Below, in pieces: positions 10,116-58,351 of a DNA stretch of 64,000 nucleotides. The stretch comes from an uncultured Bacilli bacterium. GTDB taxonomy: Bacteria; Bacillota_I; Bacilli_A; RF39; UBA660. The notes beneath the pieces are model-generated. The model worked only from the letters and a program-made list of their open reading frames with translations. It did not search any database and was not told where the DNA came from. The DNA lies in NCBI GenBank assembly GCA_934098525.1, contig CAKONZ010000002.1, positions 53,442 through 117,441 on the forward strand. The letters run 5' to 3'. The position numbers were made by a program, and so were the translations under genes. Each line of letters starts with the position of its first letter. The first letter of the stretch is position 1.

Positions 10116-11034
10116 TAAGTGTCCGCACATAAAATCACCTTATAAGTGCTAATTTATATTTCTAATAATATCATATTTGAGCTTTTATAATCAAACATTG
10201 CTCTTGGATAATTATTTATCCAATCTTCAATTTGTTTTATAAATGATGTTTTTATATTTGTTATGTCCGTTCCTTTGGGTATCCACCTTCTTATCAATCT
10301 ATTATTATTTTCATTTGTTCCTCTTTCTCCAGAACAATATGGATGTGCATAATATATTTCTGTTCTTTTCTTTTTTCTTAAACATGATTTTTCTAGCCCT
10401 TCATATCCCATAAATTCAACTCCATTATCAAACGTTATACTCTTAAAGACTTTATAAAACTTTCCTTGATATCTTCTTTCAATTCTATCAATCGCTTTTG
10501 CTACTGTCTTTGTTTCTTTATTTGGAAGTTTCATTATTATTTCTTGCCTTGTTTTTCTTTCTGTTAATGTAAATAACACAGGTTTAGTTCCTTGTTTTCC
10601 AATAACTAAATCTCCTTCCCAATGACCATATATTTCTCTTGTTTTTGCCTCCTTGGGTCTATATTCAATACTTTTTTCTGCCGGTATCATTTTAGATACC
10701 CTTTTTTCTTTATTCTTATTATTATATCCCTTTTTGTATATTATCTTTCCTTGTTTTAAATCATTAAATATAACCCCACTTTTAATTGCATTTCTTATTG
10801 TTCTTTCGCTTTTATGCAATAATTCTGCTATTTCTTTCTTGCTCTTTTTATCTGAATTATACCAAGTCTCTATCATTGTCCTTTCTGAATATGTTATATG
10901 TTTATATTTTTTGATTTTTTTGTTATAATTTAAAAGACACATAGTTTATTACCTCCAATGTTAGTTCGCACTTACATTGTATCATAGGTAATTCTATGTG
11001 TCTTTTTTTATGTCCCTTTTCGGACACTTAATTT
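10116..11034 (-). mobile_element. IS30-family insertion sequence (about 0.9 kb)
   Basis: A single transposase ORF is flanked by imperfect terminal inverted repeats. They share TAAGTGTCCG plus ACATAAAA (left 10118-10140; right 11003-11032 in reverse complement). Confidence 0.65.
10154..10942 (-). CDS. IS30-family DDE transposase
   Basis: N-terminal HTH. HWEGDLV, ITFDNGVEF and NENNNRLIRRWIPKGTDI motifs give the IS30 DDE triad signature. RBS GGAGGT is 9 nt upstream. Confidence 0.8.
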   Translation of the reverse strand: MCLLNYNKKIKKYKHITYSERTMIETWYNSDKKSKKEIAELLHKSERTIRNAIKSGVIFNDLKQGKIIYKKGYNNKNKEKRVSKMIPAEKSIEYRPKEAKTREIYGHWEGDLVIGKQGTKPVLFTLTERKTRQEIIMKLPNKETKTVAKAIDRIERRYQGKFYKVFKSITFDNGVEFMGYEGLEKSCLRKKKRTEIYYAHPYCSGERGTNENNNRLIRRWIPKGTDITNIKTSFIKQIEDWINNYPRAMFDYKSSNMILLEI

Positions 11035-46567: not shown

Positions 46568-48697
46568 CTATTCATCAAAGAAATCATCAAAAAATTGATC
46601 ATCAGTAATATTATTATATTTTTCACTAACAGAAGACAAAGGTTTCAAAGTAGAATTATCTTTCATATCAGTATCTTCAACATAAATATCTTTAACTGTA
46701 TTAACATCTTCAACTTTTTGTTTTTTATTTTTCAAAGCTTCTTGTTCAGCCTTTTCTTCAGCTTCTAATTCTGCTATCTTAGCATCTATTCTTTTAACCA
46801 AATCATCTACAGATATAGAAGAATCCTTATTATTAGAATCAGAACTAGGATTAGCAGAAGATGGTTCAAATAAATTTTGTCCAAAAGGATTAGCAGCAAA
46901 AGGATTGGCTGCAAACGGATTAGCAAAAGGATTTATACTTTGTCCATTTGGAGAATTTACCATATTATTAAAATTCTCTTTTTTCTTGCTCTGAACAAAA
47001 TCTTTTAAACTAAATACTGAAATCTTTTCCTTTTCTCTTTGAACAAATGGATCAGCTTCACCATACTTAACTCCCCAATCTATTTCAAAATTAGGTTTTA
47101 ATCTAGTTTTAAAAGGATCCAATCTAACTCTTTTTACTATAGCTTCAAACTGTTTCATTCTTTGAAGATCTGCTACTGTTGCTAAAGGTCTTGTCTCTTC
47201 ATGTTCTTTATCACCCTTACCAACTTTTACTCTTCTCTCACCACATAACTCAGATATCTCTTTAAGTGCAGCAAGTTCAGTAGTAAGTAAATATAACATA
47301 TTATTACAGTTACTTCTAATAGTTTGAGCATTTTCTTTTCCATAAACAGCATCAAGTCCAGCAAAGTTCTGAATTATCATAGTAAATCTGATTTTTCTAG
47401 AACGAGCTGCTGTAATCATTGTAGTAACGTCCTTCAAAGGAGGCATATTCTGGAACTCATCAAGAATAAAATTAGTTCTTACAGGAAGTTCACCATTATT
47501 ACTATTTTGTGCCACATCAATTAATGATTCATAACATTGCTTAATAAATATTGTAGCAAGAGCATGATAAGTTTTCTTTTCATCTTGAATAATCATAAAT
47601 ACTGCAGTTTTTTCTTTTCCTATTGACTCCATCTCAAAATCACTTCTAGAAAGCATTTCTGAAAGATTTTCACGAGATGCAAACAATCTGATTTTTTGTT
47701 TTAATGTAGAAATAATAGAGCCCTTAGTCTCCTCAGGAGCATAAACAGTACCTGAAGCACAAGTATATGCAGCACCAGCTGGATCCTTAGCATTAAAATA
47801 TTCTTTTATATAATTACTTCTAGGTCCATATTTTTCTTCACCCTCAGTAGTCATCAAAGAAACACTATTAATATTAACCTGCTCCGGTTTAGCATCCTCA
47901 AACAAACCTAAAGTAAGACCTGAAAAATAATCTGCTGCTGTCTTTTCCCAGAATGGGTCTTTACTTCCACCCTCTTCATACAAAATATTAGCAGCTAAAT
48001 CGTCTAACAACTCCATAGCCTTATCACTATTACCATTTCTATATAAACTATATGGTAAAGCAAGAGGATTCCAACAATTTCCTCTTTGTGGCTCTCTGAA
48101 GTTCAAAATAACAATTTTATATCCTCTTTCTTTCAATAAACCAGCACTCTCACGATATATTTCACCCTTAGGGTCAGTAATAATCATTGACTCACCCTTC
48201 TTAGCCAAAATTTTAACCAATGGATGAATAATACATTGAGTTTTACCAGTACCAGTTGAACCTATTACTAAGTTATGACTTTCACCATTATCAACCCACA
48301 TCTTTTCTCCATCATTTATAATTGGAAAACCTGCTTTTTCATAATATGGGTCTTTTACTCTAACTTCACTTAAAGTAGACTTCATTTCTTTTGGTTTACA
48401 CCAATCAGAATAGCCCTTCTTTTCTTTCTTTCCTATAGAAAAACCAAAACCTTCTTCTCTTTCAAAAAAATATGACTTACAAGAAACAAATATAAATACC
48501 ATTAATAACAAATAAAGTATTAATAACGCATCTAAATGATTTACAAAAGCAGGAAATGGATTTAATCCAGCAAAACCTTCACCAGCTGCTGCAGATGCTA
48601 AATTATTAACAAATATAGCTACAACAAATAATCCAACAACAGCAAATATTAAAAATATCAACCAATCTTGTAAAGTAGCTTTAAATTTAAATTTCAT
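46568..48697 (-). CDS. type IV secretion coupling protein (VirD4/TraG/TcpA-like ATPase)
   Basis: Two N-terminal TM helices. Walker A VIGSTGTGKT and Walker B FILDEFQN. The C-terminal tail carries NPFANPFAANPFAANPFG repeats and an acidic end. Confidence 0.8.
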   Translation of the reverse strand: MKFKFKATLQDWLIFLIFAVVGLFVVAIFVNNLASAAAGEGFAGLNPFPAFVNHLDALLILYLLLMVFIFVSCKSYFFEREEGFGFSIGKKEKKGYSDWCKPKEMKSTLSEVRVKDPYYEKAGFPIINDGEKMWVDNGESHNLVIGSTGTGKTQCIIHPLVKILAKKGESMIITDPKGEIYRESAGLLKERGYKIVILNFREPQRGNCWNPLALPYSLYRNGNSDKAMELLDDLAANILYEEGGSKDPFWEKTAADYFSGLTLGLFEDAKPEQVNINSVSLMTTEGEEKYGPRSNYIKEYFNAKDPAGAAYTCASGTVYAPEETKGSIISTLKQKIRLFASRENLSEMLSRSDFEMESIGKEKTAVFMIIQDEKKTYHALATIFIKQCYESLIDVAQNSNNGELPVRTNFILDEFQNMPPLKDVTTMITAARSRKIRFTMIIQNFAGLDAVYGKENAQTIRSNCNNMLYLLTTELAALKEISELCGERRVKVGKGDKEHEETRPLATVADLQRMKQFEAIVKRVRLDPFKTRLKPNFEIDWGVKYGEADPFVQREKEKISVFSLKDFVQSKKKENFNNMVNSPNGQSINPFANPFAANPFAANPFGQNLFEPSSANPSSDSNNKDSSISVDDLVKRIDAKIAELEAEEKAEQEALKNKKQKVEDVNTVKDIYVEDTDMKDNSTLKPLSSVSEKYNNITDDQFFDDFFDE
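46880..46935 (-). repeat. short tandem DNA repeat encoding the NPFA peptide repeats in the coupling protein tail
   Basis: Plus-strand AAAGGATTAGCAGCAAAAGGATTGGCTGCAAACGGATTAGCAAAAGGATT, with a 12-15-nt unit repeated about four times. Confidence 0.6.
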
Positions 48698-48715
48698 AAC
48701 AATCCCTCCTGTTTA

Positions 48716-50506
48716 CTAAAGTCCTCCGCCACTACCAAATGAATCTAACTCTTCTTGAGATAAAATAACAGACATTCTCATTCTTCTAGAACCACAAACA
48801 AACAATGCTTCTCCTTGAGAATATTTCTTTATACTTTCCTTTTCATTATCATTTAAATCAATAAGTAAAGACAAATCTTCAACAGCTTGTTTCTTTAATC
48901 CCATAACTAAATAATAAGCAGCATTATCAAATATTGCCTTACCTTGAGTAATAACAGCTTGTGGTGTAAAATCACTAGGTTGTTGAGTAATAATTATATT
49001 ACCTGTATTATACTTACGACTTCTTCTTTGAATTTGAGCCAAGAAATCAGCTCCTAAAACATTACCACCAGATAATAATACATGAGCTTCATCAACCATC
49101 ATAACTGTATTAATAGAAGAATCCAAACACAAACTCCATGCATATTTCAAAATATTAAAGAACAATGCATTACGAACATTAACATCAGCATTCATTAACT
49201 CTCTAATATTAAATACTATAAAATTACTTTTTGGAGCAATAGTAGTATGTCCATTAAAATAAAATTTCAATTCATTTGTAATAGGTCTAATCTTAAGCTC
49301 TAATCTCTCTAAAATATCTCTTTCATGTGACATTTCTGGACTAGCCATAAGTTTTCCTTTAATAGTAGCATAAACATCATCAAAAGTAGGATAATTCTCT
49401 GATTTATAATTAGAAAAATCTGTATTAAAATCAATACCAAATCTACGATAAGTATCTTGAACTAACTCAATAAAAACATTAAGAACATCCTCTTCTATAG
49501 ATGGATCATAATATTTCATAAATGCTTTTAAAAATTGTAAAGTCTTAGTAAGAACAGTATATCCTAACCCTTGTTTAACTTCATCTTCATCAGCATCAAT
49601 TAATACTTCAAGTGGATTAATTAAACCAAACTCTCCACCTTTACCTAAATCAATATTATCTCCGCCAAATAAATCAGTCATATATTTCAATTCATTTTCA
49701 GGGTCAATTGCAACAACTTTATAACCATTTCTTAAAGCAGATCTCAACATTAACTTAGCAGCAGTAGATTTACCACTACCAGAAGTACCTAATATAATCA
49801 TATTAGCATTATTTCTATTATGTTCTTTTCTTATTTGATATAAAAACTGATTAAATAAAACAACTCCTCCAGAAAAATCAATACCCATTAATGTAGAAGG
49901 ACCTGGATCTTTAATAGTATCAAATATAAAAGGATACATACCAGCCATAGTAGGAGAAGGCATAATTGTACCAACTCTTTCCTCTACATCTTGTTTAGGG
50001 AAAATAGGTAAAATTGATTTTAATACTTTTTCTTGTTCAAACTTAATTGGAACAGCCCTAAGTAACTTAGCATCCAAATAGTTTTTAACTTGTAGTCTCT
50101 TTACCTCTAATTCTTCTTTTGTATCAGCAGTAAGTACTAAGTGCATTTGAAAATCAAAAGTCTTAGCATTATTAGCCGCTAATTGTTGAATATATTCTTC
50201 TAAAGTCTCATAGTCCTGTCTAATTCTTTCCTGTGCAGTAGCATCTTTTTCTTCACTATATCTTTCCTTTAAATCAGCAAGTTGTTTATTTAATAACTTA
50301 CTAAGAGTTTGAAAAGGAACAGGAATATGTTTAATAACAACCTTAACACCAGGCATACTAGTAAGATCAGATAAAAAACCAACCTCTACAGATCTAGGAT
50401 AAGAAATAGCAGTCAATATTGTCATATACTTATCAGCAACTCTAATAGTATCAGGAGTAAACTCTAATCCTTTTGGAGCAACTTCAGACTTAATAGCGCT
50501 TCTCAT
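48716..50506 (-). CDS. VirB4-family T4SS ATPase (TrsE/TcpF/Orf16-like), lacking the extreme N-terminal region
   Basis: Walker A ILGTSGSGKST and Walker B MMVDEAH. The upstream MAGMYPF segment is typical of VirB4 N-domains. Start ATG overlaps the upstream ORF stop as TAATG. Confidence 0.8.
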   Translation of the reverse strand: MRSAIKSEVAPKGLEFTPDTIRVADKYMTILTAISYPRSVEVGFLSDLTSMPGVKVVIKHIPVPFQTLSKLLNKQLADLKERYSEEKDATAQERIRQDYETLEEYIQQLAANNAKTFDFQMHLVLTADTKEELEVKRLQVKNYLDAKLLRAVPIKFEQEKVLKSILPIFPKQDVEERVGTIMPSPTMAGMYPFIFDTIKDPGPSTLMGIDFSGGVVLFNQFLYQIRKEHNRNNANMIILGTSGSGKSTAAKLMLRSALRNGYKVVAIDPENELKYMTDLFGGDNIDLGKGGEFGLINPLEVLIDADEDEVKQGLGYTVLTKTLQFLKAFMKYYDPSIEEDVLNVFIELVQDTYRRFGIDFNTDFSNYKSENYPTFDDVYATIKGKLMASPEMSHERDILERLELKIRPITNELKFYFNGHTTIAPKSNFIVFNIRELMNADVNVRNALFFNILKYAWSLCLDSSINTVMMVDEAHVLLSGGNVLGADFLAQIQRRSRKYNTGNIIITQQPSDFTPQAVITQGKAIFDNAAYYLVMGLKKQAVEDLSLLIDLNDNEKESIKKYSQGEALFVCGSRRMRMSVILSQEELDSFGSGGGL

Positions 50507-51249
50507 TATATAATCACACTCCCTGCCTCATATTTTCTTCCCCCATTTAATAAATTATCCAAAATGGTTCTCAAATCATCATCACTTGTTTGACTACAAG
50601 TAAGATCACAACTACTAATACCATTAATTAAATTTCTAAGTTTCTTTTGTAAGATATCAAGTTTCTTTTCTTTAAATAAAATATAATATTCAATATCTGA
50701 AACCTGATTATTAACAAATATATCACCCTTATTCATATCCTGAGCTATTATCTTTCTAAGTCTAGGATCATTAGTTTTATTAAATAATATTTGCATCTCA
50801 GCTTGATACATAGAAATATCAACTGGTCTATCTGCTATCATAAGCCAAAACTCAAAATCAATAGTATTATAAAAATTCATAAGACCAAAAATTATATTAT
50901 CAGCTTGAAATTGTTCAAGAATGAAAATATTTTTAGGTTGAATTTTTACACCAGTTACCATATACCCATCTTTAGTATAAATAATATTATTTTTAATTGT
51001 CTTTAAATTAAGCCAATTTTCAGTATACCTAGGATTACTTATAGCAGCCTTAGATAACTTCTTACCTCCTGACATTTTAGTAGACATTCCTGACTGTACC
51101 CTCATTCCAGGAGTCATTGCATTATTCATAGTTTGTATAGTTTGAGTATTCTGCATATTTGTTTGATTATTACTTTGATTATTACTAAAATTAGAAATTC
51201 CTTGGGAACCCTGATCTTGGTAATTCATCTGATTCTGTTGGTTGTTCAT
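50506..51249 (-). CDS. hypothetical protein with Q/N-rich N-terminus. Possibly the detached N-terminal domain of VirB4
   Basis: 247 aa. The first approximately 60 residues are low-complexity Q/N/S. The remainder is globular. Translationally coupled to the VirB4 ORF. Combined length (843 aa) equals a typical Gram-positive VirB4. Confidence 0.4.
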   Translation of the reverse strand: MNNQQNQMNYQDQGSQGISNFSNNQSNNQTNMQNTQTIQTMNNAMTPGMRVQSGMSTKMSGGKKLSKAAISNPRYTENWLNLKTIKNNIIYTKDGYMVTGVKIQPKNIFILEQFQADNIIFGLMNFYNTIDFEFWLMIADRPVDISMYQAEMQILFNKTNDPRLRKIIAQDMNKGDIFVNNQVSDIEYYILFKEKKLDILQKKLRNLINGISSCDLTCSQTSDDDLRTILDNLLNGGRKYEAGSVII

Positions 51250-51550
51250 ATTGATAACACCATCCTCTCCAATAATATCTTCTTATATCTTTAAAATAAA
51301 ATCTAAAGATTGTTACTAACAAATACCTACAATTGTGATAATTAGGTATTGGAAACACCAAGAACACCCCTATTAAAAAAGGTAAAAGAGCAAGAATTGC
51401 AATCACTATATTAGTAATTGGAAAGCTCATAAACAGTACAAACGAAATCAATATAGCTATAGAAACCAATATCAAATCAGGTAGTCTCATAAAGCCAAAT
51501 ATTAACCCTTGTTTCTTACTATTTGAAGGAATTATATAATTACCATTCAT
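51191..51550 (-). CDS. small two-TM membrane protein, VirB3-like candidate
   Basis: 119 aa with two hydrophobic helices, positioned immediately upstream of VirB4 as in Tn916 orf17, ICEBs1 conC and pCW3 tcpE. Confidence 0.4.
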   Translation of the reverse strand: MNGNYIIPSNSKKQGLIFGFMRLPDLILVSIAILISFVLFMSFPITNIVIAILALLPFLIGVFLVFPIPNYHNCRYLLVTIFRFYFKDIRRYYWRGWCYQYEQPTESDELPRSGFPRNF

Positions 51551-51579
51551 ATTTAATCATCCCCTTTTTATAAACATAA

Positions 51580-54018
51580 TTAGTTATTTTTAGTTTTATT
51601 TCTATATTCGTCCATTTTTTGTGCAGCAATAAATTCAGCACTATTTTTTGTTATATCTCTATGTAAAACAACATCATCACCTAACTTACTATATAAACTA
51701 GCGTCATTATTTAATTGTTTTTGCAACCAATCTTTATCTATGTTTGTTGCTTTCATTGTATATCCAGCCTTAGATAAATCCGCAGAACTAAGTAGTTTAC
51801 CATTATTATCTCTATAAACTATTGCACCATTTTCTACAGACGGATAAATTTTTTCCCCGTCCGCGTTCACATAAGCATCAACATACCACTGACCATTCGC
51901 ACCAGCTTTCCATGTATCATCCTTAAAGTCTAATTCAATAATGCTAGCCAAATTATCAGAACTAAACAATCCTGAAGTATCCATTTTAATTAAATCATCA
52001 AGACGTTTCTTTTTAGCGTTAACAACTTCGTTAGTACCAGAATTAATCAAATCCGTAATAGCTTGTTTTTCCAACAATTTGATAGAACTCTCTGCATCAC
52101 TTATATTTAAGCTTACATTACTGTTAACACCATTATTATTACTATCAACACCAAATTGCATATTTACATCAACAGTATCGAGACTCTTAGCACGTGCATC
52201 CGCAATATTTGAAGTTAATTGATTGAAATTTGCAGTAAGTGCCATACTTTGTAATTCCACACTACCATTTTTAGAAGCAGCAGTAATAGCATCATTGATA
52301 TCAGTCTCGACACCATTAATCTTTACCTTTGCAACACCTTCGGCCTGAAGATTTTGTAATTCATCAACAGTAAATTTTCTGGATGTAGCACGTGTTTTGC
52401 CAAGATTCTTACCTGTTATTGTTGTTTGAGTTGTTTGGTCTTTTCCAACCTCTTTTTTACCAGTGTTCGACAGATCTTCTTGTGCATTGGCTACTTCATC
52501 AATATGTTGAAGCTGTGCCTTTAATTTTTCGCCTTCTGTTGCAATACCAAAAGTAGCAGCAGCCCTATTTTTAAACATATCCTTAAGCTTTGGGCTAACA
52601 CCAGCACCAAGCAAATCTCCATAAGCACGAGATTTACTTTTTGCAGTTGAAATAGCACTACTTGCACCTTTGCCTTTCCAACCATCCTTTGCACCACTAA
52701 GACCAGCAGATAAACCACCAGAAAGTGAAGCTTTAGCAATTGCCCAATTTCTTCCTTTTTCACCTTTTTGAATATTACTAGCAGCAGCATATCCTCTTGA
52801 TACACCACCAACTGCAGCTGCTGCAACACCAGCAGTTGCAAGTCCAAAACCTTTTTTAGCCATATTAAATGATTCTTTAAATGATCCAGCACCAGAAATA
52901 CCAAAAATTTTACTTATAAAAGATGGTAAAAGTTTTGCAAAAGTCAAAATTCCTAAAATTAAAATTACACCAATATGTTTTTGAGTCAATTTATCACTGC
53001 TAGCTGTGATTATAGTTGTGGCCAGTGAAATAGAAAATAATTTCAAAAACAAATCAAAATAAACCGAAGCGAAACTTTTAAGCCATTGGTTAAATATTTT
53101 ATCTTTAGGATTCAAATAACAAATAAAAGCAATTGGAGCAATAACTCTCAAAACTATAATTTTTAAGTCTCTTACTACAATTTCTATACACATTACAAAA
53201 ATAAAGACAACAAGAGCCAAGCCAATAATAAGATTAATAACAAAGTTTAGATCATACATTTCACCAAGAGCACATACATATCCTACATAAAAGTTAACAG
53301 ACCCCATATATAATATAGCGCCACCAGCCAATCCAGGATAATATAATAAACTGCTATTTTCTTTTTTTAACTCACTATAATTATCATATTTATAACCCTT
53401 TTCATTGTCTTTGGCTTCCCTACAAACTTTTTCATCAACAACGTTATTAGCAATAAGACTTACAAGCTTTGTTGGTGCTGGCATAACAGCCGAAGAAACA
53501 AGCGACTTAGTAAAACTAACAAATTTAGTATTCAAATCAAGCAAACTAGAAAAAACACTACCCACAACAACATAACCAGGTTGCAAATTTTCATATCTAG
53601 AAGCTTTTTTATCATTAGGATTAATAGGTTCAGTTGTATAGTTAACTTTAACAAAATTTGTAATAAAACCATCTGGTCCTATAACAGCAGGTTGTATTTT
53701 ATCAATCATAAAATTATATATCGTATTAAAAGAAATAAGTAAAAGAAAGCAAACAACTATACGCGAAAGCATCTTTCCCGCTCCAGCTTGTTTATCACTA
53801 ACTTTATCAGGATCTATAACCATTTGTAGTAAAGTAATGATTATTCTAAATACCATAAATGTTCCAACCAAAATATAAGCATTTTCTACGACAGGATTAA
53901 TATTAAAAATATCAGTACCTTCAACAGCCAAACTTATTAGAACATTATATAAATAAACACCAACTTTATATACACCAGTAAGGATAAAATAGAAAGCAAT
54001 GCTAATCATAAAAACCAC
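51580..54018 (-). CDS. VirB6-like polytopic T4SS channel protein (TcpH/Orf15-like) with C-terminal soluble domain
   Basis: 812 aa. Approximately 450 aa with at least 6 TM helices, then a G/A/S-rich linker and a hydrophilic C-terminal domain. Position relative to VirB3/VirB4 matches. Confidence 0.5.
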   Translation of the reverse strand: MVFMISIAFYFILTGVYKVGVYLYNVLISLAVEGTDIFNINPVVENAYILVGTFMVFRIIITLLQMVIDPDKVSDKQAGAGKMLSRIVVCFLLLISFNTIYNFMIDKIQPAVIGPDGFITNFVKVNYTTEPINPNDKKASRYENLQPGYVVVGSVFSSLLDLNTKFVSFTKSLVSSAVMPAPTKLVSLIANNVVDEKVCREAKDNEKGYKYDNYSELKKENSSLLYYPGLAGGAILYMGSVNFYVGYVCALGEMYDLNFVINLIIGLALVVFIFVMCIEIVVRDLKIIVLRVIAPIAFICYLNPKDKIFNQWLKSFASVYFDLFLKLFSISLATTIITASSDKLTQKHIGVILILGILTFAKLLPSFISKIFGISGAGSFKESFNMAKKGFGLATAGVAAAAVGGVSRGYAAASNIQKGEKGRNWAIAKASLSGGLSAGLSGAKDGWKGKGASSAISTAKSKSRAYGDLLGAGVSPKLKDMFKNRAAATFGIATEGEKLKAQLQHIDEVANAQEDLSNTGKKEVGKDQTTQTTITGKNLGKTRATSRKFTVDELQNLQAEGVAKVKINGVETDINDAITAASKNGSVELQSMALTANFNQLTSNIADARAKSLDTVDVNMQFGVDSNNNGVNSNVSLNISDAESSIKLLEKQAITDLINSGTNEVVNAKKKRLDDLIKMDTSGLFSSDNLASIIELDFKDDTWKAGANGQWYVDAYVNADGEKIYPSVENGAIVYRDNNGKLLSSADLSKAGYTMKATNIDKDWLQKQLNNDASLYSKLGDDVVLHRDITKNSAEFIAAQKMDEYRNKTKNN

Positions 54019-54105
54019 TCCTTTTTAATAAAGATACCATTACAACATAAATTATAACAAAAAAAAAGACAAATAACAATACAATTATTTATCTTTTTAA
54101 ACTAA

Positions 54106-54447
54106 CTATTTTACAATGCCATTGTCACATTGGGCATTATTAGGATTAGTTGCACAAGTCCAACATAAATCAGAATCAAAATTTTTACCTACTAATCCAA
54201 ATGCAGCTTGAACAATTGTAACAACAAAGAAAATTACTACACCATAAATTAATCTTTTGATTAACATCTTTTGAGCAGCCTTGATTTCCTTATCTTCACC
54301 AGCCATAACAGCTTTACCTAAATCAATCATAGCCATTAAAACTATAATAATTGGAATAGCTATTTTTAAAATATTAATTACTAAACCTATTAATTTCCAT
54401 ATTGCAACTGTATCTTTACAAAAAGTAGCAGCATCTAACATATACAT
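54106..54447 (-). CDS. small Cys-rich two-TM membrane protein (VirB2/pilin-like candidate)
   Basis: Likely start MYMLDAATFCK... (RBS GAGAGG). Two TM helices, and a C-terminal tail DLCWTCATNPNNAQCDNG with four cysteines. Confidence 0.4.
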   Translation of the reverse strand: MYMLDAATFCKDTVAIWKLIGLVINILKIAIPIIIVLMAMIDLGKAVMAGEDKEIKAAQKMLIKRLIYGVVIFFVVTIVQAAFGLVGKNFDSDLCWTCATNPNNAQCDNGIVK

Positions 54448-54530
54448 ATACATAACCTCTCTCTCTACAACAATTATAAAATAGATAAATATTATTGTCA
54501 ACAATTTATTTTTACATAAACTTAAGTTTA

Positions 54531-55520
54531 CTACATATTACTTCTTCTAATCAATTTTTTTATTTCTTCTTTTAAACGATTTCCATCACTTATAGCACCA
54601 TTATATGATCCAGTATAATCAGAATCAGAATCATAAACGCCATCAAATGGTCCAGCAAATCTAACTCCATTAAATTTACAATTTGACAAATCTTTATTAT
54701 ATATTGTTTGTGGATTTATAACTACTCCTATTGCTCCAGTAAAATCAGTATTACAAATTTTTGTTGCATCAAAAGGTCCAACAAATTTAACACCACGGAA
54801 ATTACAATAGCTTAAATCTCTATTGTATACTGTTTGCGGATTTATAACTGCTCCAATTGAATTTGAAAATTTAGAACCAGAAATTTTAACTCCGTGAAAT
54901 TGTCCACTGAACTTAACATTACCGAAATTACAATTTGACAAATCTTTAAAATTGATTTTTTGTGGATTTATAACTGCCCCTCTTGAACCTGAAAAATCAC
55001 AGTTTTCAACTCTAACGTAGCCAAACGAACCAATAAATTCAACTCCAGAAAATTTACATTCAGATAAGCAATGACTTTTAATATCAAATGGAGCAATTCT
55101 AGCACCAACCGATCCTGTAAAATCAGAATTATCAATTCTTACATCATTAAATGATCCAATAAATCTAACTCCGGAAAATTTACAATGACTTAAATCTTTT
55201 TCTATTATTGTTTGTGGATTGATAGTTATTCCCTTAGTACCAGAAAAATCAACACCACGTTTTTCATAAAATGAATGACATCTAAATAATGAAAAATCTA
55301 TACCTGTAAAATCAATTTTATTTAAAAATGGTTTTATCTCCTCACAAAACTCTTTATATTGACTATCTCTACCAACATTTTTATAATCAAAAATAAGCCT
55401 ATATAGTGATCCACTTCCAATATTTAATTTATTTATTTGAACTCTTTTTCCTTCTTCTAAGTTTTTTAATTCTTCTATAAATATTTTTCTTGTTTTTTCA
55501 ATTATGTCTTGACTAATCAT
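54531..55520 (-). CDS. pentapeptide-repeat protein
   Basis: Approximately 100-aa N-terminal domain, then at least five approximately 41-aa modules of the type INPQTIYNKDLSNCKFNGVRFAGPFDGV, built from A(D/N)LxX pentapeptides. Confidence 0.8.
   Translation of the reverse strand: MISQDIIEKTRKIFIEELKNLEEGKRVQINKLNIGSGSLYRLIFDYKNVGRDSQYKEFCEEIKPFLNKIDFTGIDFSLFRCHSFYEKRGVDFSGTKGITINPQTIIEKDLSHCKFSGVRFIGSFNDVRIDNSDFTGSVGARIAPFDIKSHCLSECKFSGVEFIGSFGYVRVENCDFSGSRGAVINPQKINFKDLSNCNFGNVKFSGQFHGVKISGSKFSNSIGAVINPQTVYNRDLSYCNFRGVKFVGPFDATKICNTDFTGAIGVVINPQTIYNKDLSNCKFNGVRFAGPFDGVYDSDSDYTGSYNGAISDGNRLKEEIKKLIRRSNM
54660..55230 (-). repeat. intragenic approximately 125-bp periodic DNA repeat (pentapeptide-repeat modules)
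   Basis: Recurring AAATTTACAATTTGACAAATCTTT...TTTGTGGATTTATAACT units at about 54671, 54800, 54917 and 55166. Confidence 0.6.
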
Positions 55521-55644
55521 AATTCCCCTCCTAATTAATTGGTTATTTTACCATAAATAACCAATTTTGTAAATATTACTGTTAAATTTATTATTTATAT
55601 TTTATATTTATAAAATTTATGATATTATAACAAAGAGGTGAACA

Positions 55645-56067
55645 ATGAAAAATAAATTTATAGTTATTATAATTACTATAATTGTCATATTAGGTGGTAT
55701 TGTATTAATATTTGGTAATGATTCTGATAAATACCTACAAGAAATAACTTATAAAAAACTAGAAGAAAAAATAAAAAGTAATGAGTCATTTCCTTTGCTT
55801 ATAATGTCATCACAATGTATTCATTGTCAATCCTTCGATCCAAAATATAAAAGTGTACTAAATAAATACGAAGTAACATCATATTATATTAATTTAACAA
55901 CTTTAACAAAAGCTGAAAAAACTTCTTTATATGAATTAACACAATATGAAGGAACTCCAACAGTAGTATTCTTTAAAAATGGTAGTATGACAAAAACTAC
56001 AATCGAAGGAGATAAAGATAAAGAAGTAATTATAAGTAAATTAAAATCTTCAGGATTTATAAAATAA
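55645..56067 (+). CDS. membrane-anchored thioredoxin-fold thiol-disulfide oxidoreductase (BdbA/ResA-like)
   Basis: N-terminal TM, then thioredoxin fold with CIHC (CxxC) active site. Confidence 0.75.
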   Translation: MKNKFIVIIITIIVILGGIVLIFGNDSDKYLQEITYKKLEEKIKSNESFPLLIMSSQCIHCQSFDPKYKSVLNKYEVTSYYINLTTLTKAEKTSLYELTQYEGTPTVVFFKNGSMTKTTIEGDKDKEVIISKLKSSGFIK

Positions 56068-56101
56068 AAAATATTTAGCATTCACGCTAAATATTTTTTA
56101 T

Positions 56102-58351
56102 TTACTCATTATTTTTTTCTTTTTCTTTATCTTTTTTTAATAACTCTTCTTTTAAAAATTCTTCATCTTCATTTTTATTCAAGAAATAAATTATTAATGT
56201 ACCAAGTAGTACTATAATTATTACCTTTATAATACTACCCCAAATTATTTCATCTTTTTTAACTTCTTCTTTACTAATATCACTAACTACAATATCATCT
56301 TTTTTCAAAGTATCATCAGTATCTATATTATCTGTATCATCAATTATATTATTAGTTTTAATAATTTTATTATCATCATTATTTTTATTATCATTTTTAA
56401 CTTCTTTTTCTATTAAATCAAACGCTAATAAATCATCTATATTATTTACAGTATAAACACTACCATTTAAATTAACTTCAATATTATCTTTATTAGGTAA
56501 TCTTTTAAAAGTTAATTTTACAAGTAAAGTATTATTAGAAAATTCACCATATCCTAATAATTTCAAAGTATTATTTTCATTAACTAAATAAATATTTTTA
56601 TCTGTTTCATAAGAAACATAATCTATATTAGAAAAATTCAAATTAAACTTAATACCATTAACAACTCCTAAAGTATCTAAATATACTTCATAGTAAACAT
56701 AATTTTCATCATAAGTTTTAACAATTCTATAACTAGCATTTTCAATTTCATCTCCTAAAGTAATTAAATTTAAAATACTAGCAAGTTTAACAACATCTAA
56801 GGTATCTACTTTCTTATCATTATTTATATCTAATAAATAAGTATTATCTAAATCATTATTATTAATTTTATCAATCAATAAACTTAAATCCTCTTCATCA
56901 AGAATACCATTATTATTAATATCCCCATTTATTAATATCTTAAATACATATCCATTATCAACAGTAATAGTATTATTACTATAATCAATACTAAAATTAA
57001 TATATTGATCATTCAAATTCTTTACAAATAAATTATTATCTAAGTCATTTATATTATTTAAAACATTATATAAAATAATATTCTTTTCATTACTACCAAT
57101 ATAATAATTAGATTCATCTAATAAACCAATTTGAATATTATTAATCATTACATCATAAATACTTTTTCTAATATCATCATCTAAATTATCCAAAGCTGTT
57201 AATTTTTCTAATAATTTAATCATTTCATAACTATTATCATTAGAAATAATATTACGTATAATATCATAAACTTTTTCACTACTATAAATATTATAATAAT
57301 TATTCAAATCAACTAAATAATTATTAACAGCATCACTATCACTAGGTTTTCTTTCTAAATAATTATTAATATCATTCATCAATATATTATAAGTATCATC
57401 AAAACCAATCAATTTAATATAATTATCAATTAAATCTTGATCAATACTAATACTATTTTTAACTAAATTATCTACATTTTCATAATCATTTTTTAAACTA
57501 TCAATTCTATTTAATAAATTATTATTACTCAAATTTGAATTATTATTATAAAAACTATTTTCTACTTCAGTTAATCTACTATTAAAATCACTAATATTAT
57601 TATTAATAGTTAAAGTATCTAATACTTCAATAGATAAAATATAATTTTTTATATCACTTTTTATATTTTCTAATAAATCATAAACATTACTATCATTAAT
57701 AGTCATATTAGGAACATTTCCTAAACTAATTTCATTATTATAATAATTATCAACATCATTTTTTAAATTATCTACATCACCAATAATACTATTAAATGTA
57801 TTAATATAATTATTATAAATACCAACTAATTCATTAATCTTATCATCAACATTTATATAATCAGATATTAATACATCATTATCATGAAATATATTATTAA
57901 TAATTAAATTAATAATATTATCCTCACCTAATGTAGATATTATATTAGGATCAATAGCATCATAATCATAATTATTAATTATTAAATCTTCTGTCAAACC
58001 CAAAGAATTATAATTATTTATTAATAAAGTATTATTAGAATTTAATATAAGTCTAGTCAAATTAATAGTGTTATTATTATATACTAATGTTGCATGATTA
58101 GTATTAATATCACTAACATTTTTATAAATAGTATCAACTGCAACTTTATATGCCACACTATCTATATAATTTTGACTACCTTTCTTTTCTAAAATATCAT
58201 TATTAATATTTACTATTTTACTATCAAAATCAGCAAAATAATTTGTAAATTGTGTACTAACAGCATTAACCATCATTACTATAGGCATAAAAAAATTACA
58301 TACCAAAATCAGTAATGTAAATAATGCTATATGTCTTAAACTTTTCTTCAT
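56102..58351 (-). CDS. large N/D/I-rich surface protein with dockerin-like repeat pair and C-terminal TM anchor
   Basis: Start MKKSLRHIALFTLLILV (RBS GGGGAGGA) gives a signal peptide. DINNNGILDEEDLSLLIDKI and DINNDKKVDTLDVVKLASIL form a calcium-binding dockerin-type repeat pair. A beta-rich module and the tail-anchor IIWGSIIKVIIIVLLGTLIIYFL follow. Confidence 0.55.
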   Translation of the reverse strand: MKKSLRHIALFTLLILVCNFFMPIVMMVNAVSTQFTNYFADFDSKIVNINNDILEKKGSQNYIDSVAYKVAVDTIYKNVSDINTNHATLVYNNNTINLTRLILNSNNTLLINNYNSLGLTEDLIINNYDYDAIDPNIISTLGEDNIINLIINNIFHDNDVLISDYINVDDKINELVGIYNNYINTFNSIIGDVDNLKNDVDNYYNNEISLGNVPNMTINDSNVYDLLENIKSDIKNYILSIEVLDTLTINNNISDFNSRLTEVENSFYNNNSNLSNNNLLNRIDSLKNDYENVDNLVKNSISIDQDLIDNYIKLIGFDDTYNILMNDINNYLERKPSDSDAVNNYLVDLNNYYNIYSSEKVYDIIRNIISNDNSYEMIKLLEKLTALDNLDDDIRKSIYDVMINNIQIGLLDESNYYIGSNEKNIILYNVLNNINDLDNNLFVKNLNDQYINFSIDYSNNTITVDNGYVFKILINGDINNNGILDEEDLSLLIDKINNNDLDNTYLLDINNDKKVDTLDVVKLASILNLITLGDEIENASYRIVKTYDENYVYYEVYLDTLGVVNGIKFNLNFSNIDYVSYETDKNIYLVNENNTLKLLGYGEFSNNTLLVKLTFKRLPNKDNIEVNLNGSVYTVNNIDDLLAFDLIEKEVKNDNKNNDDNKIIKTNNIIDDTDNIDTDDTLKKDDIVVSDISKEEVKKDEIIWGSIIKVIIIVLLGTLIIYFLNKNEDEEFLKEELLKKDKEKEKNNE

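Follow-up and report, generated by a model that had tools for sequence, protein, structure and literature searches.

The window analysed here, a 64-kb stretch from the chromosome of an uncultured gut bacterium, contains a block of type IV secretion system (T4SS) genes on the minus strand. The operon runs in the order pilin-like gene, VirB6, VirB3-like gene, VirB4 N-terminal domain, VirB4 ATPase and VirD4, and a gene for a membrane-anchored thioredoxin (Trx) is encoded on the opposite strand near its 5' edge. The features of the locus are as follows:

46568..48697, minus strand: VirD4-like coupling protein, 709 aa (PF02534, 1.6e-56; NF045973, CD1115 family, 316.5 bits with a cutoff of 250)
48716..50506, minus strand: VirB4 ATPase domain, 596 aa (NF045975, 8.4e-102, positions 295-891; also CD1110 family)
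50506..51249, minus strand: VirB4 N-terminal (TraC-like) domain as a separate ORF, 247 aa (NF045975 positions 92-277; PF26593, TraC-like)
51191..51550, minus strand: VirB3-like small membrane protein, 119 aa (NF045975 model positions 2-92)
51580..54018, minus strand: VirB6/TrbL-like polytopic membrane protein, 812 aa (PF19597, TrbL_4), immediately downstream of the small gene
54106..54447, minus strand: VirB2/T4SS_pilin-like membrane protein with two helices (the small protein), 113 aa when started at the ATG at 54447
54473..54501, minus strand: sigma-70 promoter with a perfect consensus match (TTGACA-N17-TATAAT), just ahead of the small gene
54531..55520, minus strand: pentapeptide-repeat protein, 329 aa, no transmembrane (TM) segment predicted (Pfam Pentapeptide families)
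55645..56067, plus strand: membrane-anchored thioredoxin-fold oxidoreductase, 140 aa (TM helix 2-23, active site C58-I-H-C61, T104-P105)
56067..56098, no strand assigned: perfect 13-bp inverted repeat AAAAATATTTAGC-attcac-GCTAAATATTTTT, read from the sequence, between the convergent Trx and 769-aa genes
56102..58411, minus strand: Asn-rich surface protein (p769), 769 aa, with an N-terminal signal/anchor and a C-terminal TM segment

Gene content of the T4SS block

The VirB3-like protein, which is kept in related loci, aligns with the N-terminal part of NF045975, a model of mycoplasma ICE VirB4. We ruled out that the split VirB4 is a pseudogene, because the identical three-ORF layout is found in all related loci that carry VirB4. 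The block is flanked by housekeeping genes (mutS, ligA, ezrA, lon, pdp, topA and rnhB), and a scan of 50 window ORFs gave no match to a relaxase or integrase family; a few ORFs that are short or lack a match have no assignment. The association of a relaxase with VirB4/VirD4 by which a conjugative T4SS is recognized was thus not seen in the ORFs scanned. An integrative and conjugative element was also considered and is not supported, given the housekeeping flanks and the lack of a nearby relaxase or integrase; the only transposase found lies approximately 36 kb away.

Two further proteins of the locus were assessed for cysteines. VirB6 was rejected as an alternative substrate of the thioredoxin: its loop cysteines, C199 and C249, are not conserved, its C-terminal 430 aa are free of cysteine, and its cysteines are unconserved outside a membrane helix. 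The p769 protein (TM segments 28-46 and 726-744) has no match in Pfam; all three of its cysteines fall within the first 38 residues, which leaves the mature part without any. Its gene is kept beside the Trx or pilin gene in six related loci (L006, L011, L012, L018, L023 and L024). In one sub-clade, p769 is the outer neighbour of Trx; its membership of the system is uncertain. The inverted repeat between p769 and Trx is a candidate bidirectional terminator. A consensus terminator scan of the region, which needs at least three G-C pairs, returned no match; it missed this repeat because the stem is AT-rich and has two G-C pairs.

The small protein is a VirB2-like hairpin

The small protein is encoded within the minus-strand ORF 54106-54504, and its C-terminal end reads ...DLCWTCATNPNNAQCDNGIVK. 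A length of 132 aa had been assigned to it earlier, which we correct: the TTG start codon that this length implies adjoins the -35 box of the promoter, and the true start is the ATG at 54447 or that at 54453. In an identical contig (L001), the gene is called as 113 aa; residue numbers below follow the 115-aa version that begins at the alternative ATG at 54453. The ORF and its sequence bear out the expected Cys-rich membrane protein with two TM segments, placed by hydropathy at residues 21-39 and 71-89. The original prediction of four cysteines in the C-terminal tail holds for the number but not for the position: the 18-residue tail has three (C97, C100 and C109), and the fourth, C12, lies in the N-terminal tail, ahead of the first membrane helix.

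A search for homologues of the small protein found 228. The T4SS_pilin model (PF18895) was matched at E<=1 by 39 of 47 aligned relatives (best E 4.9e-5), whereas TrbC (PF04956) was matched by only three of the 47. Against PF18895, the window protein reaches 15.8 bits (E 0.014), under the gathering threshold of 26.6, and paralogues in three loci (L141, L142 and L143) carry precomputed matches to this model. The AlphaFold2 model (pLDDT 80.7) is a hairpin of helices 16-51 and 54-91 with short tail helices. A Foldseek search of the PDB with this model retrieved just generic helical hairpins at E>1, a result that speaks neither for nor against homology to VirB2, and a PDB sequence-profile search with the alignment gave no significant match. 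The protein is a membrane hairpin of two helices, and its relationship to T4SS_pilin is weak but consistent.

Genes for VirB3, VirB4 and VirB6 adjoin the small gene in the window and in approximately 45 related loci, and the VirB6-like gene comes after the pilin-like genes in approximately 50. In relatives, pilin-like genes often form tandem arrays of two to eight paralogues, some of them fused to large extracellular domains. The perfect sigma-70 promoter is the only one in the 64-kb window, where 0.11 would be expected by chance, and nearly all related loci have a near-consensus promoter (10 to 12 of 12 positions) ahead of their first pilin-like gene, with about the same spacing. A lone perfect promoter whose position is conserved in relatives fits an abundant structural subunit. 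Because relatives match PF18895, the model is a hairpin, the place ahead of TrbL_4/VirB6 and VirB4 is fixed and the promoter is conserved, we conclude that the small gene encodes a VirB2-like hairpin and, behind a strong promoter, is the leading gene of a chromosomal T4SS operon.

Paired cysteines in the two tails

Cysteines of the small protein are strongly conserved in the tails. All 257 relatives that were compared have a cysteine in the N-tail, and 256 of them have one in the C-tail as well; the 47-sequence alignment shows no variation at C12 and C97. Among representatives of 50%-identity clusters, 144 of 148 keep both an N-tail and a C-tail cysteine. The four exceptions lack the one in the N-tail, and three of these have little or no sequence ahead of the first helix. 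The total of tail cysteines is even in 243 of the 257 relatives. The patterns of one N-tail cysteine with three (176 sequences), one (31) or five (9) in the C-tail indicate that additional C-tail cysteines have been gained or lost pairwise.

Averaged over the 257 relatives, the loop between the helices has 5.75 Lys and Arg residues vs. 0.84 in the N-tail and 2.24 in the C-tail; both tails are net acidic, and only two relatives have a cysteine in the loop. A loop that is rich in Lys and Arg, and free of cysteine in all but two sequences, places itself in the cytoplasm by positive-inside statistics and both Cys-bearing tails outside. The proposal would have failed had the Cys tail been cytoplasmic; these values predict it to be extracytoplasmic.

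The thioredoxin is related to PDI and PedC-like proteins

The Trx protein has a Lys-rich N-terminus followed by one TM helix and the catalytic domain. Its hydrophobic anchor, CIHC motif and score against the Thioredoxin model (PF00085, 37.7 bits with a gathering threshold of 23.5) agree with the earlier description of a CxxC thioredoxin with an N-terminal membrane anchor. In several relatives, a lipoprotein lipobox (LTGC) takes the place of the anchor. A signal-anchor, or a lipobox in relatives, puts the Trx domain outside; with one TM segment behind a Lys-rich N-terminus, the topology check thus places it in the extracytoplasmic compartment. The AlphaFold2 model (pLDDT 89.8) is a classic thioredoxin fold, in which the CxxC motif starts the helix 59-75. 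Residues C58, C61, F64, P66, T104 and P105 are invariant in alignments of 27 and 42 sequences, and the C-x-H-C form of the active site occurs in 137 of 146 relatives (94%). The active site of DsbA is CPHC and that of PDI is CGHC, both similar to C-x-H-C. The likeness to DsbA is functional only and not one of family membership: no Pfam profile of the DsbA family matches, and the catalytic domain of 115 residues has no insertion.

In the PDB profile search, PDI a-domains lead at 1.9e-15, and the Bta structure 1zma follows at 4e-6. The PedC-like Pfam family (PF20207) has precomputed matches for the identical protein and for all 120 relatives listed. On the other hand, the NCBIfam equivalog for PedC/BrcD (TIGR01295) gives E 1e-8 and 35.2 bits, well short of its cutoff of 120, so that the kinship with PedC holds only at the level of the Pfam family. 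Foldseek searches with the model matched many thioredoxins with probability 1.00 (target-normalised TM scores of 0.72-0.83), and 1zma was matched as well. In sequence and fold, the family of PedC/PapC/BrcD and Bta is thus the closest to the window Trx.

A thioredoxin of the ResA, CcmG or TlpA kind would deliver reductant, keeping extracytoplasmic cysteines reduced for cofactor attachment or as a protection from oxidation. A membrane-anchored thioredoxin fold with CxxC is common to ResA and TlpA, ordinary reducing thioredoxins dominate the structural search, and a few family members have CSAC, CTSC or CKFC in place of an active site with His. However, neither Redoxin/AhpC-TSA nor ResA/TlpA models in Pfam and NCBIfam match the protein at E<=0.01, its minimal fold lacks the insertions of ResA and TlpA, and its CIHC site is not of the C-x-P-C type, with C-x-H-C in 94% of relatives and PDI a-domains closest by sequence. 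Neither a partner of the CcdA/DsbD type nor cytochrome-maturation genes were found among the window ORFs scanned. A reducing role is thus very unlikely. The concern that the thioredoxin homologues might be generic ResA/TlpA housekeeping genes is not borne out, as ResA/TlpA- or DsbA-type matches are lacking and PDI, PedC/BrcD and the bacteriocin transport accessory protein of pneumococcus match best. Against an oxidising role, the genes next to Trx include no partner for its reoxidation (DsbB, VKOR or BdbC-like), and an oxidase would need a source of oxidising power in a gut anaerobe.

Kinship with PedC also raises the thought that the small protein is a bacteriocin- or holin-like peptide for which the PedC-like Trx serves as maturation factor, with the T4SS being unrelated. 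PedC is a putative thiol-disulfide oxidoreductase, and its co-production raises the potency of pediocin, which has four cysteines (PMC4919988). In support of this thought, Trx belongs to the PedC-like Pfam family and matches TIGR01295 weakly, and pediocin-type substrates also have four cysteines (PMC4919988). We give it almost no credence, for the small protein is a hairpin of two TM segments without a leader, its relatives match PF18895, VirB6 and VirB4 always come next, there are often two to eight paralogues, some with large extracellular domains, and neither an export ABC transporter nor an immunity gene was found from VirD4 to the 769-aa protein. PedC remains comparable in that its four-Cys pediocin substrate is analogous to the four-Cys pilin; the difference is that PedC belongs to a bacteriocin locus, whereas the window Trx has T4SS genes and housekeeping genes as neighbours, and its proposed substrate is an integral membrane hairpin.

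Linkage of the thioredoxin to the pilin operon

Between 43.1 and 64 kb of the window, Trx is the sole plus-strand ORF of at least 80 aa outside longer minus-strand ORFs, in line with the original prediction that it is the only plus-strand gene of the cluster. That it is encoded opposite the small gene is right as to strand; however, the two genes do not directly adjoin, as the 329-aa pentapeptide gene (54531-55520) stands between them. Among 84 related loci, a pentapeptide gene of this cluster is present in just two (L001 and L002), both of the same lineage as the window, and it is probably a lineage-specific insertion rather than a conserved part of the pair. In relatives, Trx and the small gene are true neighbours in divergent orientation; as raw ORFs, most such pairs are separated by 20-190 bp.

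In 24 related species-representative genomes, Trx lies at the 5' edge of the operon and is divergent from its leading pilin-like gene; the same divergent pairing was seen in six of 14 Trx-centred metagenome loci and in all four of a further set of Trx-centred loci. The outer flank of Trx varies and is of at least seven kinds (PBP, PrsW-like, ABC, p769, patatin and others), and the adjacency persists down to approximately 34% Trx identity. The Trx family is narrow: a profile search found approximately 140 clusters of proteins of approximately 141 aa, those of seen origin come from metagenome-assembled genomes (MAGs) of uncultured Bacilli, and in the contexts examined the gene mostly adjoins the pilin/T4SS operon. 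As a side observation, the lower half of the matches in a metagenome scan with 11 Trx sequences (at most 30% identity) consists of unrelated generic thioredoxins that share the GTPT motif.

Exceptions do occur. On the VirB4 tree, the linkage maps to one clade, so that many loci may reflect a single ancestral event followed by inertia. Within this clade, L008, L011, L021 and L033 have sufficient upstream sequence and no Trx there, and in L037 four genes, and in L013 and L036 one gene each, separate Trx from the pilin gene. In the sister clade, none of 19 loci has a local Trx, yet the Cys pairs are kept; thus, a local Trx is not indispensable for the family. Trx relatives away from pilin genes (37-74% identity) lie beside c14-like Cys-rich secreted proteins (L087 and L096), beside a c31-like membrane protein (L088 and L094) or beside a T2SSE ATPase and Cys-rich prepilin-like genes (L091), and in L138 and L139 large Cys-rich proteins of the prepilin type (N_methyl) are encoded within a few kb of Trx. 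The c31 and c14 genes open the same long apparatus operon in the sister clade.

The adjacency might have no functional meaning, a thioredoxin gene simply happening to border the T4SS block in one lineage. The restriction of the linkage to one clade would agree with this, as would the intervening genes in the window (pentapeptide), L037 (four), and L013 and L036 (one each). The pairing has nevertheless been kept over dozens of species despite rearranged outer flanks, the predictions put the Trx domain into the same compartment as the Cys-bearing tails, and the narrow Trx family is found almost only in a T4SS context; we consider an accident of gene order very unlikely. Conservation of the cysteines in 257 relatives, together with an adjacency that recurs over many species and flanks, exceeds chance.

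More serious, though in our judgement doubtful, is the explanation that Trx is a general extracytoplasmic oxidoreductase for many exported proteins, including prepilin-like proteins, Cys-rich surface proteins and T4SS pilins, and that its position is conserved synteny. On the one hand, Trx relatives adjoin other Cys-rich exported genes (L087, L096, L088, L094 and L091), the large N_methyl proteins of L138 and L139 are Cys-rich and close to Trx, and just one Trx-like gene was found in the 64-kb window. The sister clade has very Cys-rich apparatus proteins as well as Cys-bearing pilins with no local Trx, so that disulfide formation must be available genome-wide there. On the other hand, adjacency to the pilin operon survives at least seven outer flanks, down to approximately 34% Trx identity; four of the off-site relatives adjoin c31 or c14 genes, the openers of the sister-clade apparatus operon; and the other exported proteins of the window cluster avoid cysteine. 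Organisms that lack a broad disulfide proteome typically show such avoidance.

Co-conservation of the two genes is thus real in the 24 genomes, the six of 14 metagenome loci and the four further loci, but it fails in the sister clade and in L008, L011, L021 and L033. Likewise, the notion of a dedicated enzyme-substrate pair stands in that the linkage recurs and the compartments agree, and falls short in its exclusivity, given the single clade, the exceptions and the other Cys-rich neighbours. From these sequence comparisons, it is plausible that Trx and the pilin form a pair that is specific to the apparatus, not strictly to the pilin.

A putative disulfide staple

A thioredoxin of the predicted disulfide-forming kind lies beside a pilin-like protein that has cysteines at both of its outward ends, and the enzyme therefore probably staples these ends together. 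The small protein is the likeliest substrate because it is the sole conserved Cys-bearing exported component of the cluster in the window genome; in relatives with larger apparatus operons, the Trx family probably serves several Cys-rich components. On balance, we lean towards the following model, in which an extracytoplasmic Trx of the PDI/PedC kind would form a C12-C97 staple in the pilin of a relaxase-less T4SS as a counterpart of pilin cyclisation. The hairpin would be inserted with its loop, rich in Lys and Arg, in the cytoplasm and both tails outside. There, the Trx domain would act as an oxidase or isomerase of the PDI/PedC kind, making the invariant disulfide between C12 of the N-tail and C97, the first cysteine of the C-tail, and would also secure the right pairing of the second, co-varying pair in the C-tail, C100-C109. 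The staple would lock the termini together on what is presumed to be the exterior of a pilus or channel that VirB6 and VirB4 assemble.

This N-to-C staple would be the functional counterpart of the head-to-tail peptide cyclisation in VirB2, TrbC and TrhA pilins. The VirB2 T-pilin, RP4 TrbC and R27 TrhA are hairpin pilins of two helices; prior to assembly, a covalent bond links their termini outside the cytoplasm (PMC12037004, PMC13434634, bioRxiv 10.1101/2022.04.28.489814). The invariant pair of N-tail and C-tail cysteines would give the same joining in the window family; however, the classical bond is a peptide bond made by a dedicated peptidase or cyclase (TraF for TrbC), whereas in the window family a thioredoxin would make it as a disulfide. 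The staple would be a cheaper equivalent of ring closure in classical conjugative pilins. The cyclic pilins belong to diderm systems, and the pilus of the window family is a putative one.

The F plasmid offers a second comparison. Its TrbB is a CxxC disulfide isomerase/chaperone of the thioredoxin fold; the gene belongs to the T4SS set, and the protein works on components of the T4SS outside the cytoplasm (PMC11315126). TrbB and TraF are like the window Trx in that a thioredoxin-fold protein is encoded inside a T4SS gene cluster; unlike Trx, which is membrane-anchored in a monoderm, TrbB is soluble and periplasmic in a diderm F-type system. In addition, the F pilin, TraA, is without a disulfide, whereas the substrate proposed here is the pilin-like subunit. 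Trx is not a member of the TrbB family, since it scores 26.7 bits against TIGR02738 (E 3.8e-6, aligned over residues 31-84 only), far under the cutoff of 132.

The comparison originally made was with the Bdb oxidoreductases of Bacillus and the ComGC pseudopilin; the role of BdbDC with ComGC in Bacillus subtilis is discussed in PMC7212644 and PMC10246001. ComGC, the major subunit of a DNA-transport filament in a monoderm, needs an extracytoplasmic thiol-disulfide oxidoreductase for its disulfide, and the window pair is proposed to work alike. However, BdbD is DsbA-like with a helical insertion and partners the quinone-linked BdbC, whereas the fold of Trx is minimal; ComGC belongs to the type IV pilins and is not a VirB2-like hairpin, and the bdb genes do not adjoin comG. 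The comparison is therefore fair as a working analogy but does not extend to family membership, given the minimal fold and the lack of a DsbA-family match.

Implications for relaxase-less T4SS

A parallel in genome organization comes from Patescibacteria (CPR), whose MPF-FATA-type T4SS are chromosomal and mostly relaxase-less, with VirB4, VirB3 and VirB6 and two to 11 tandem VirB2-like/PF18895 genes (PMC12102498). Reduced genomes and tandem pilin-like arrays (two to eight genes in loci related to the window) are shared; the difference is that Patescibacteria are another phylum, whereas the relatives of the window are uncultured Bacilli or gut MAGs labelled 'Tenericutes'. By a term search, PMC12102498 contains neither 'disulfide' nor 'thioredoxin'; 'cysteine' occurs once there, for an amidohydrolase domain. 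Literature searches on RF39 T4SS, PF18895, Gram-positive VirB2 disulfides and T4SS-linked thiol-disulfide oxidoreductases found no description of the pairing.

Gram-positive T4SS classes have been stated to be without virB2 homologues (PMC12102498). The window locus and its relatives show that gut Bacilli, which are monoderm, have a VirB2-like family of very large size: at 50% identity, the small-protein family counts over 8,000 representative clusters, and the species-representative genomes of uncultured gut bacteria in which relatives of the relaxase-less chromosomal T4SS occur number at least 178. We suggest tentatively, as a possibility short of an even chance, that in walled gut Bacilli with reduced genomes a large and so far unrecognised VirB2-like family is disulfide-cyclised by a T4SS-linked thioredoxin and forms a pilus or channel for DNA uptake or cell-cell interaction. 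The cyclised pilins would then form a genuine pilus or channel of a chromosomal relaxase-less T4SS that is not conjugative, a repurposing such as that proposed for Patescibacteria.

The family has a conserved covalent feature, the putative disulfide staple from N- to C-tail, and the gene for a candidate maturation enzyme lies alongside. With Trx, the PedC/Bta family of thioredoxins, tied until now to bacteriocin maturation, gains a branch associated with T4SS. If the proposal is true, there would be a second chemical route, besides peptide cyclisation, to joined pilin termini; the pilus would be detectable and purifiable via thiol chemistry and by reducing vs. non-reducing gels; and there would be a way into the function of relaxase-less chromosomal T4SS.

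Genomic context of the T4SS block

The window has a G+C content of ~25%, and its minus strand carries almost all genes. Located between mutS and pdp/topA, the T4SS block (46568-58411) is chromosomal, and its flanks hold chromosomal housekeeping genes (mutS, ligA, ezrA, lon, ileS, dnaE, pdp, topA, rnhB, uvrC, and a PASTA kinase gene). The block comprises the following features:

46568-48697, minus strand: VirD4-like coupling protein (CD1115 family; NCBIfam cutoff exceeded)
48716-50506, minus strand: VirB4 ATPase, 596 aa (positions 295-891 of the mycoplasma ICE VirB4 model)
50506-51249, minus strand: VirB4 TraC-like N-domain, 247 aa (positions 92-277 of that model)
51191-51550, minus strand: VirB3-like protein, 119 aa (positions 2-92 of that model)
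51580-54018, minus strand: TrbL_4/VirB6-like membrane protein
54106-54504, minus strand: small pilin-like protein, raw ORF
54531-55520, minus strand: pentapeptide-repeat protein, 329 aa
55645-56067, plus strand: thioredoxin, 140 aa
56102-58411, minus strand: 769-aa protein without a Pfam match

VirB4 is encoded by three consecutive, slightly overlapping ORFs (48716-51550, minus strand). A frameshifted pseudogene is ruled out, because all related loci with VirB4 have the same split, which is thus a genuine architecture. Neither a relaxase nor an integrase was detected among the window ORFs near the block. The sole mobile-element gene found in the window encodes an IS30-like transposase (HTH_38 plus rve; 10154-10942, minus strand), ~36 kb from the block.

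The original prediction described a thioredoxin encoded opposite the small protein. The thioredoxin gene is indeed on the plus strand, but the pentapeptide-repeat gene separates the two; among 84 related loci, this intervening gene is confined to the window's lineage. Its product appears to be cytoplasmic, with 10 cysteines and an internal periodicity of ~46 residues. On the other side, a perfect 13-bp AT-rich inverted repeat (56067-56098) lies between the convergent genes for the thioredoxin and the 769-aa protein; a consensus terminator scan missed it, and it is likely a bidirectional terminator. The 769-aa protein is Asn-rich and has a signal or anchor at its N-terminus, a C-terminal transmembrane segment, and dockerin- or EF-hand-like D-x-N-x-D repeats. 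In one sub-clade it adjoins the thioredoxin or pilin gene in a conserved manner, and it could serve the T4SS as an adhesin.

The small pilin-like protein

The raw ORF of the small protein starts at a TTG adjoining the -35 box. On the minus strand, TTGACA-17 nt-TATAAT is followed by GAGAGAGAGG and three ATGs. Of these, the second (54447) is normally spaced from the ribosome-binding site and yields a 113-aa product, which is also the gene call on the identical metagenome contig L001; residue numbers here follow the 115-aa form (ATG at 54453) used in the alignments, whose C12, C97, C100, and C109 correspond to C10, C95, C98, and C107 of the 113-aa product. The promoter sequence TTGACA-N17-TATAAT (54473-54501, minus strand) is the sole perfect match in the 64-kb window, where 0.11 would be expected. 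At about the same distance 5' of the first pilin-like gene, nearly all related loci (L005-L084) have a promoter close to consensus (10-12 of 12 positions; TTGACA-17-TAxxxT), even when the genes of a long operon precede that gene.

We found 228 homologs of the small protein at E<=0.01 in a protein collection clustered at 90% identity. When 1.84 billion cluster representatives were scanned in full with HMMER, 8,188 hits passed E<=1e-3 and 3,342 passed E<=1e-10. Of the 47 aligned relatives, 39 matched the T4SS_pilin model (PF18895), with a best E of 4.9e-5; the window's own protein scored 15.8 bits, below the 26.6 threshold. Fold and sequence searches of the PDB with this protein returned nothing informative. 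Its AF2 model (pLDDT 80.7) is a helical hairpin (residues 16-51 and 54-91) with short helices in the tails (8-14 and 95-102).

The most conserved part of the protein is the connecting loop, DLGKAVMAG-EDKEIK-AQKMLIKR. Across 257 relatives, mean Lys+Arg counts are 5.75 (loop), 0.84 (N-tail), and 2.24 (C-tail), and both tails are net acidic. Because Lys and Arg are concentrated in the loop, the positive-inside rule places the loop in the cytoplasm and predicts both tails to be outside.

The original prediction counted four cysteines in the C-terminal tail. This was incorrect: the tail holds three (C97, C100, and C109), and the fourth, C12, is in the N-terminal tail. Among the 257 relatives, a cysteine is present in the N-tail of all 257, in the C-tail of 256, and in the loop of 2. 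The total number of tail cysteines is even in 243 of them, with N+C patterns of 1+3 (176 proteins), 1+1 (31), and 1+5 (9). All 47 aligned sequences have C12 and C97, and C100 and C109 are gained or lost jointly across relatives. We infer that a C12-C97 disulfide links the two tails and that C100-C109 forms a second, optional bond. Of 148 representatives of 50%-identity clusters, 144 kept the signature of cysteines in both tails; the N-tail cysteine is missing from the other four, in three of which few or no residues precede the first helix.

The window has a single pilin-like gene. In most related loci (L005-L084), 2-8 tandem paralogs precede VirB6 (e.g., L038:9974-14719, L050:9989-18242, and L011:10462-12699). 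Later paralogs end in a conserved ...TCGIG motif and have a single pair of N-tail and C-tail cysteines. Some paralogs are fusions of a large extracellular module to a C-terminal pilin-like two-helix module; those in L038 and L050 are Cys-rich or look hydrolase-like.

As to other substrates in the window's cluster, cysteine is absent from the mature 769-aa protein and from the C-terminal 430 residues of VirB6, and the VirB6 loop cysteines are not conserved; thus, the small protein is the sole conserved Cys-bearing exported component.

The membrane-anchored thioredoxin

The protein belongs to the thioredoxin superfamily and to a PedC-like Pfam family: it exceeds the Pfam Thioredoxin threshold and has a precomputed match to PF20207 (PedC-like). 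Matches to PedC/BrcD (TIGR01295), PDI domains, and F-type TrbB were weak and sub-threshold, failing the curated PedC/BrcD and TrbB cutoffs. A PDB profile search placed PDI a-domains at the top (1.9e-15) and also matched 1zma, the pneumococcal bacteriocin transport accessory protein (4e-6); Foldseek with the AF2 model (pLDDT 89.8) matched thioredoxins and 1zma. The model consists of a transmembrane helix (residues 2-23), a linker, and a minimal thioredoxin fold, with the thioredoxin domain at residues ~26-140.

The CxxC motif and N-terminal membrane anchor that had been predicted were both confirmed: two alignments, of 27 and 42 relatives, show C58, C61, F64, P66, T104, and P105 without variation and the hydrophobic anchor conserved. 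The active site is C-x-H-C in 137 of 146 relatives. The oxidases DsbA (CPHC) and PDI (CGHC) share this pattern, reductive thioredoxins having C-x-P-C instead. Several relatives have a lipobox (LTGC) in place of the anchor; therefore, independently of the anchor, the thioredoxin domain is predicted to be outside the membrane. Thus, charge statistics for the cysteine tail and the anchor or lipobox for the thioredoxin agree with both parts being extracytoplasmic. The thioredoxin gene has no neighboring DsbB- or VKOR-like gene whose product might recycle the enzyme.

An alternative to a dedicated partner is a generic ResA/TlpA housekeeping protein. On the one hand, profile comparison gave no ResA-, TlpA-, or DsbA-type match, and the protein is not of the DsbA or ResA type. 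On the other hand, some of its relatives are encoded away from a pilin gene.

Association of the thioredoxin with the apparatus operon

A pilin-centered scan, with each species represented by a single genome, detected relatives in 178 genomes, all of them uncultured gut MAGs labeled Bacilli, Tenericutes, or Mycoplasma sp. CAG, a group classed as RF39 in GTDB; they include complete MAGs such as OZ006981.1. In 24 of the 80 loci examined, a thioredoxin homolog precedes the first pilin-like gene in divergent orientation, mostly with a gap of 20-190 bp between raw ORFs. In this co-conservation check, which had been proposed originally, the linkage is confined to one clade: on the VirB4 tree, all 24 loci fall within a clade of 26. 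Four further members of this clade stop at a contig edge, and the gene is absent upstream in L008, L011, L021, and L033, where upstream sequence suffices. The sister clade (n=19) has no local thioredoxin. While the pilin side is constant, the outer neighbor of the thioredoxin gene is of at least seven kinds (the PBP/mraZ region, PrsW-like, ABC transporter, the 769-aa protein, and others).

All four thioredoxin look-ups in the protein collection gave the thioredoxin followed by two or three pilin-like genes and then by TrbL_4, TraC-like, VirB4, and VirD4. In the metagenome scan, a pilin gene adjoins the thioredoxin in 6 of 14 true family members. Elsewhere, two lipoprotein-type members are divergent from Cys-rich secreted proteins of the c14 type, two from a c31-like membrane protein, and one (L091) adjoins genes for a T2SSE ATPase and Cys-rich prepilin-like proteins. 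The long sister-clade operon starts with c31 and c14, and its last genes are those of the pilin and the T4SS. Because members away from the pilin adjoin c14, c31, and T2SSE-type genes, the family follows the apparatus operon at its 5' edge and not solely the pilin gene.

In L091 (1518-5241 and 10393-12108) and L138/L139 (11416-14441), genes for large, Cys-rich proteins of the prepilin type (N_methyl) and for a PilB/ComGA-like ATPase lie within a few kb of the thioredoxin; such proteins are possible further substrates of the same oxidoreductase. The sister-clade operon (L040-L084; e.g., L057:6290-9132, L063:1381-6252, and L049:6894-7124), conserved ahead of the pilin and T4SS genes, encodes a T2SSE-family ATPase (VirB11/CpaF-like), a weakly RcpC/CpaB-like protein, DUF5411, two polytopic membrane proteins, a 75-aa Flp-like Cys-rich peptide, TadE-like proteins, and an extremely Cys-rich protein of 1,228 aa. 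In some of these loci, a pilin-like gene follows the operon and T4SS genes are absent within 10 kb.

A proposed oxidoreductase-substrate pair

The original observation is confirmed in part, with the corrections given above, and the original proposal of an oxidoreductase-substrate pair is partly supported by these sequence comparisons. Neither a cytoplasmic cysteine tail nor a ResA/TlpA identity, the two outcomes that would have spoken against the proposal, was found. However, the thioredoxin looks apparatus-associated rather than strictly pilin-dedicated, and the association is clade-limited.

Functionally, the thioredoxin resembles the T4SS-encoded TrbB of the F plasmid (PMC11315126), and the pair resembles BdbDC with ComGC (PMC7212644, PMC10246001) and PedC with pediocin (PMC4919988). 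A close parallel to the T4SS context is the relaxase-less MPF-FATA of Patescibacteria with VirB2-like arrays (PMC12102498); searching its text for disulfides and thioredoxin as terms gave no hit. Our literature searches found no description of a thioredoxin paired with a T4SS pilin.

Gene identities and order, the conserved promoter, cysteine and charge statistics, active-site conservation, and synteny are established; beyond them, we propose the following mechanism. The hairpin would be inserted with both tails outside, where the anchored thioredoxin would oxidize and proofread C12-C97 and C100-C109. VirB2, TrbC, and TrhA undergo head-to-tail cyclization (PMC12037004, PMC13434634, bioRxiv 10.1101/2022.04.28.489814), and the N-to-C staple may be a stand-in for it. 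In a putative polymer built by VirB6/VirB4, the basic loop would be on the side of the lumen, lining it, and the variable tails, stapled together, would be on the outer face.
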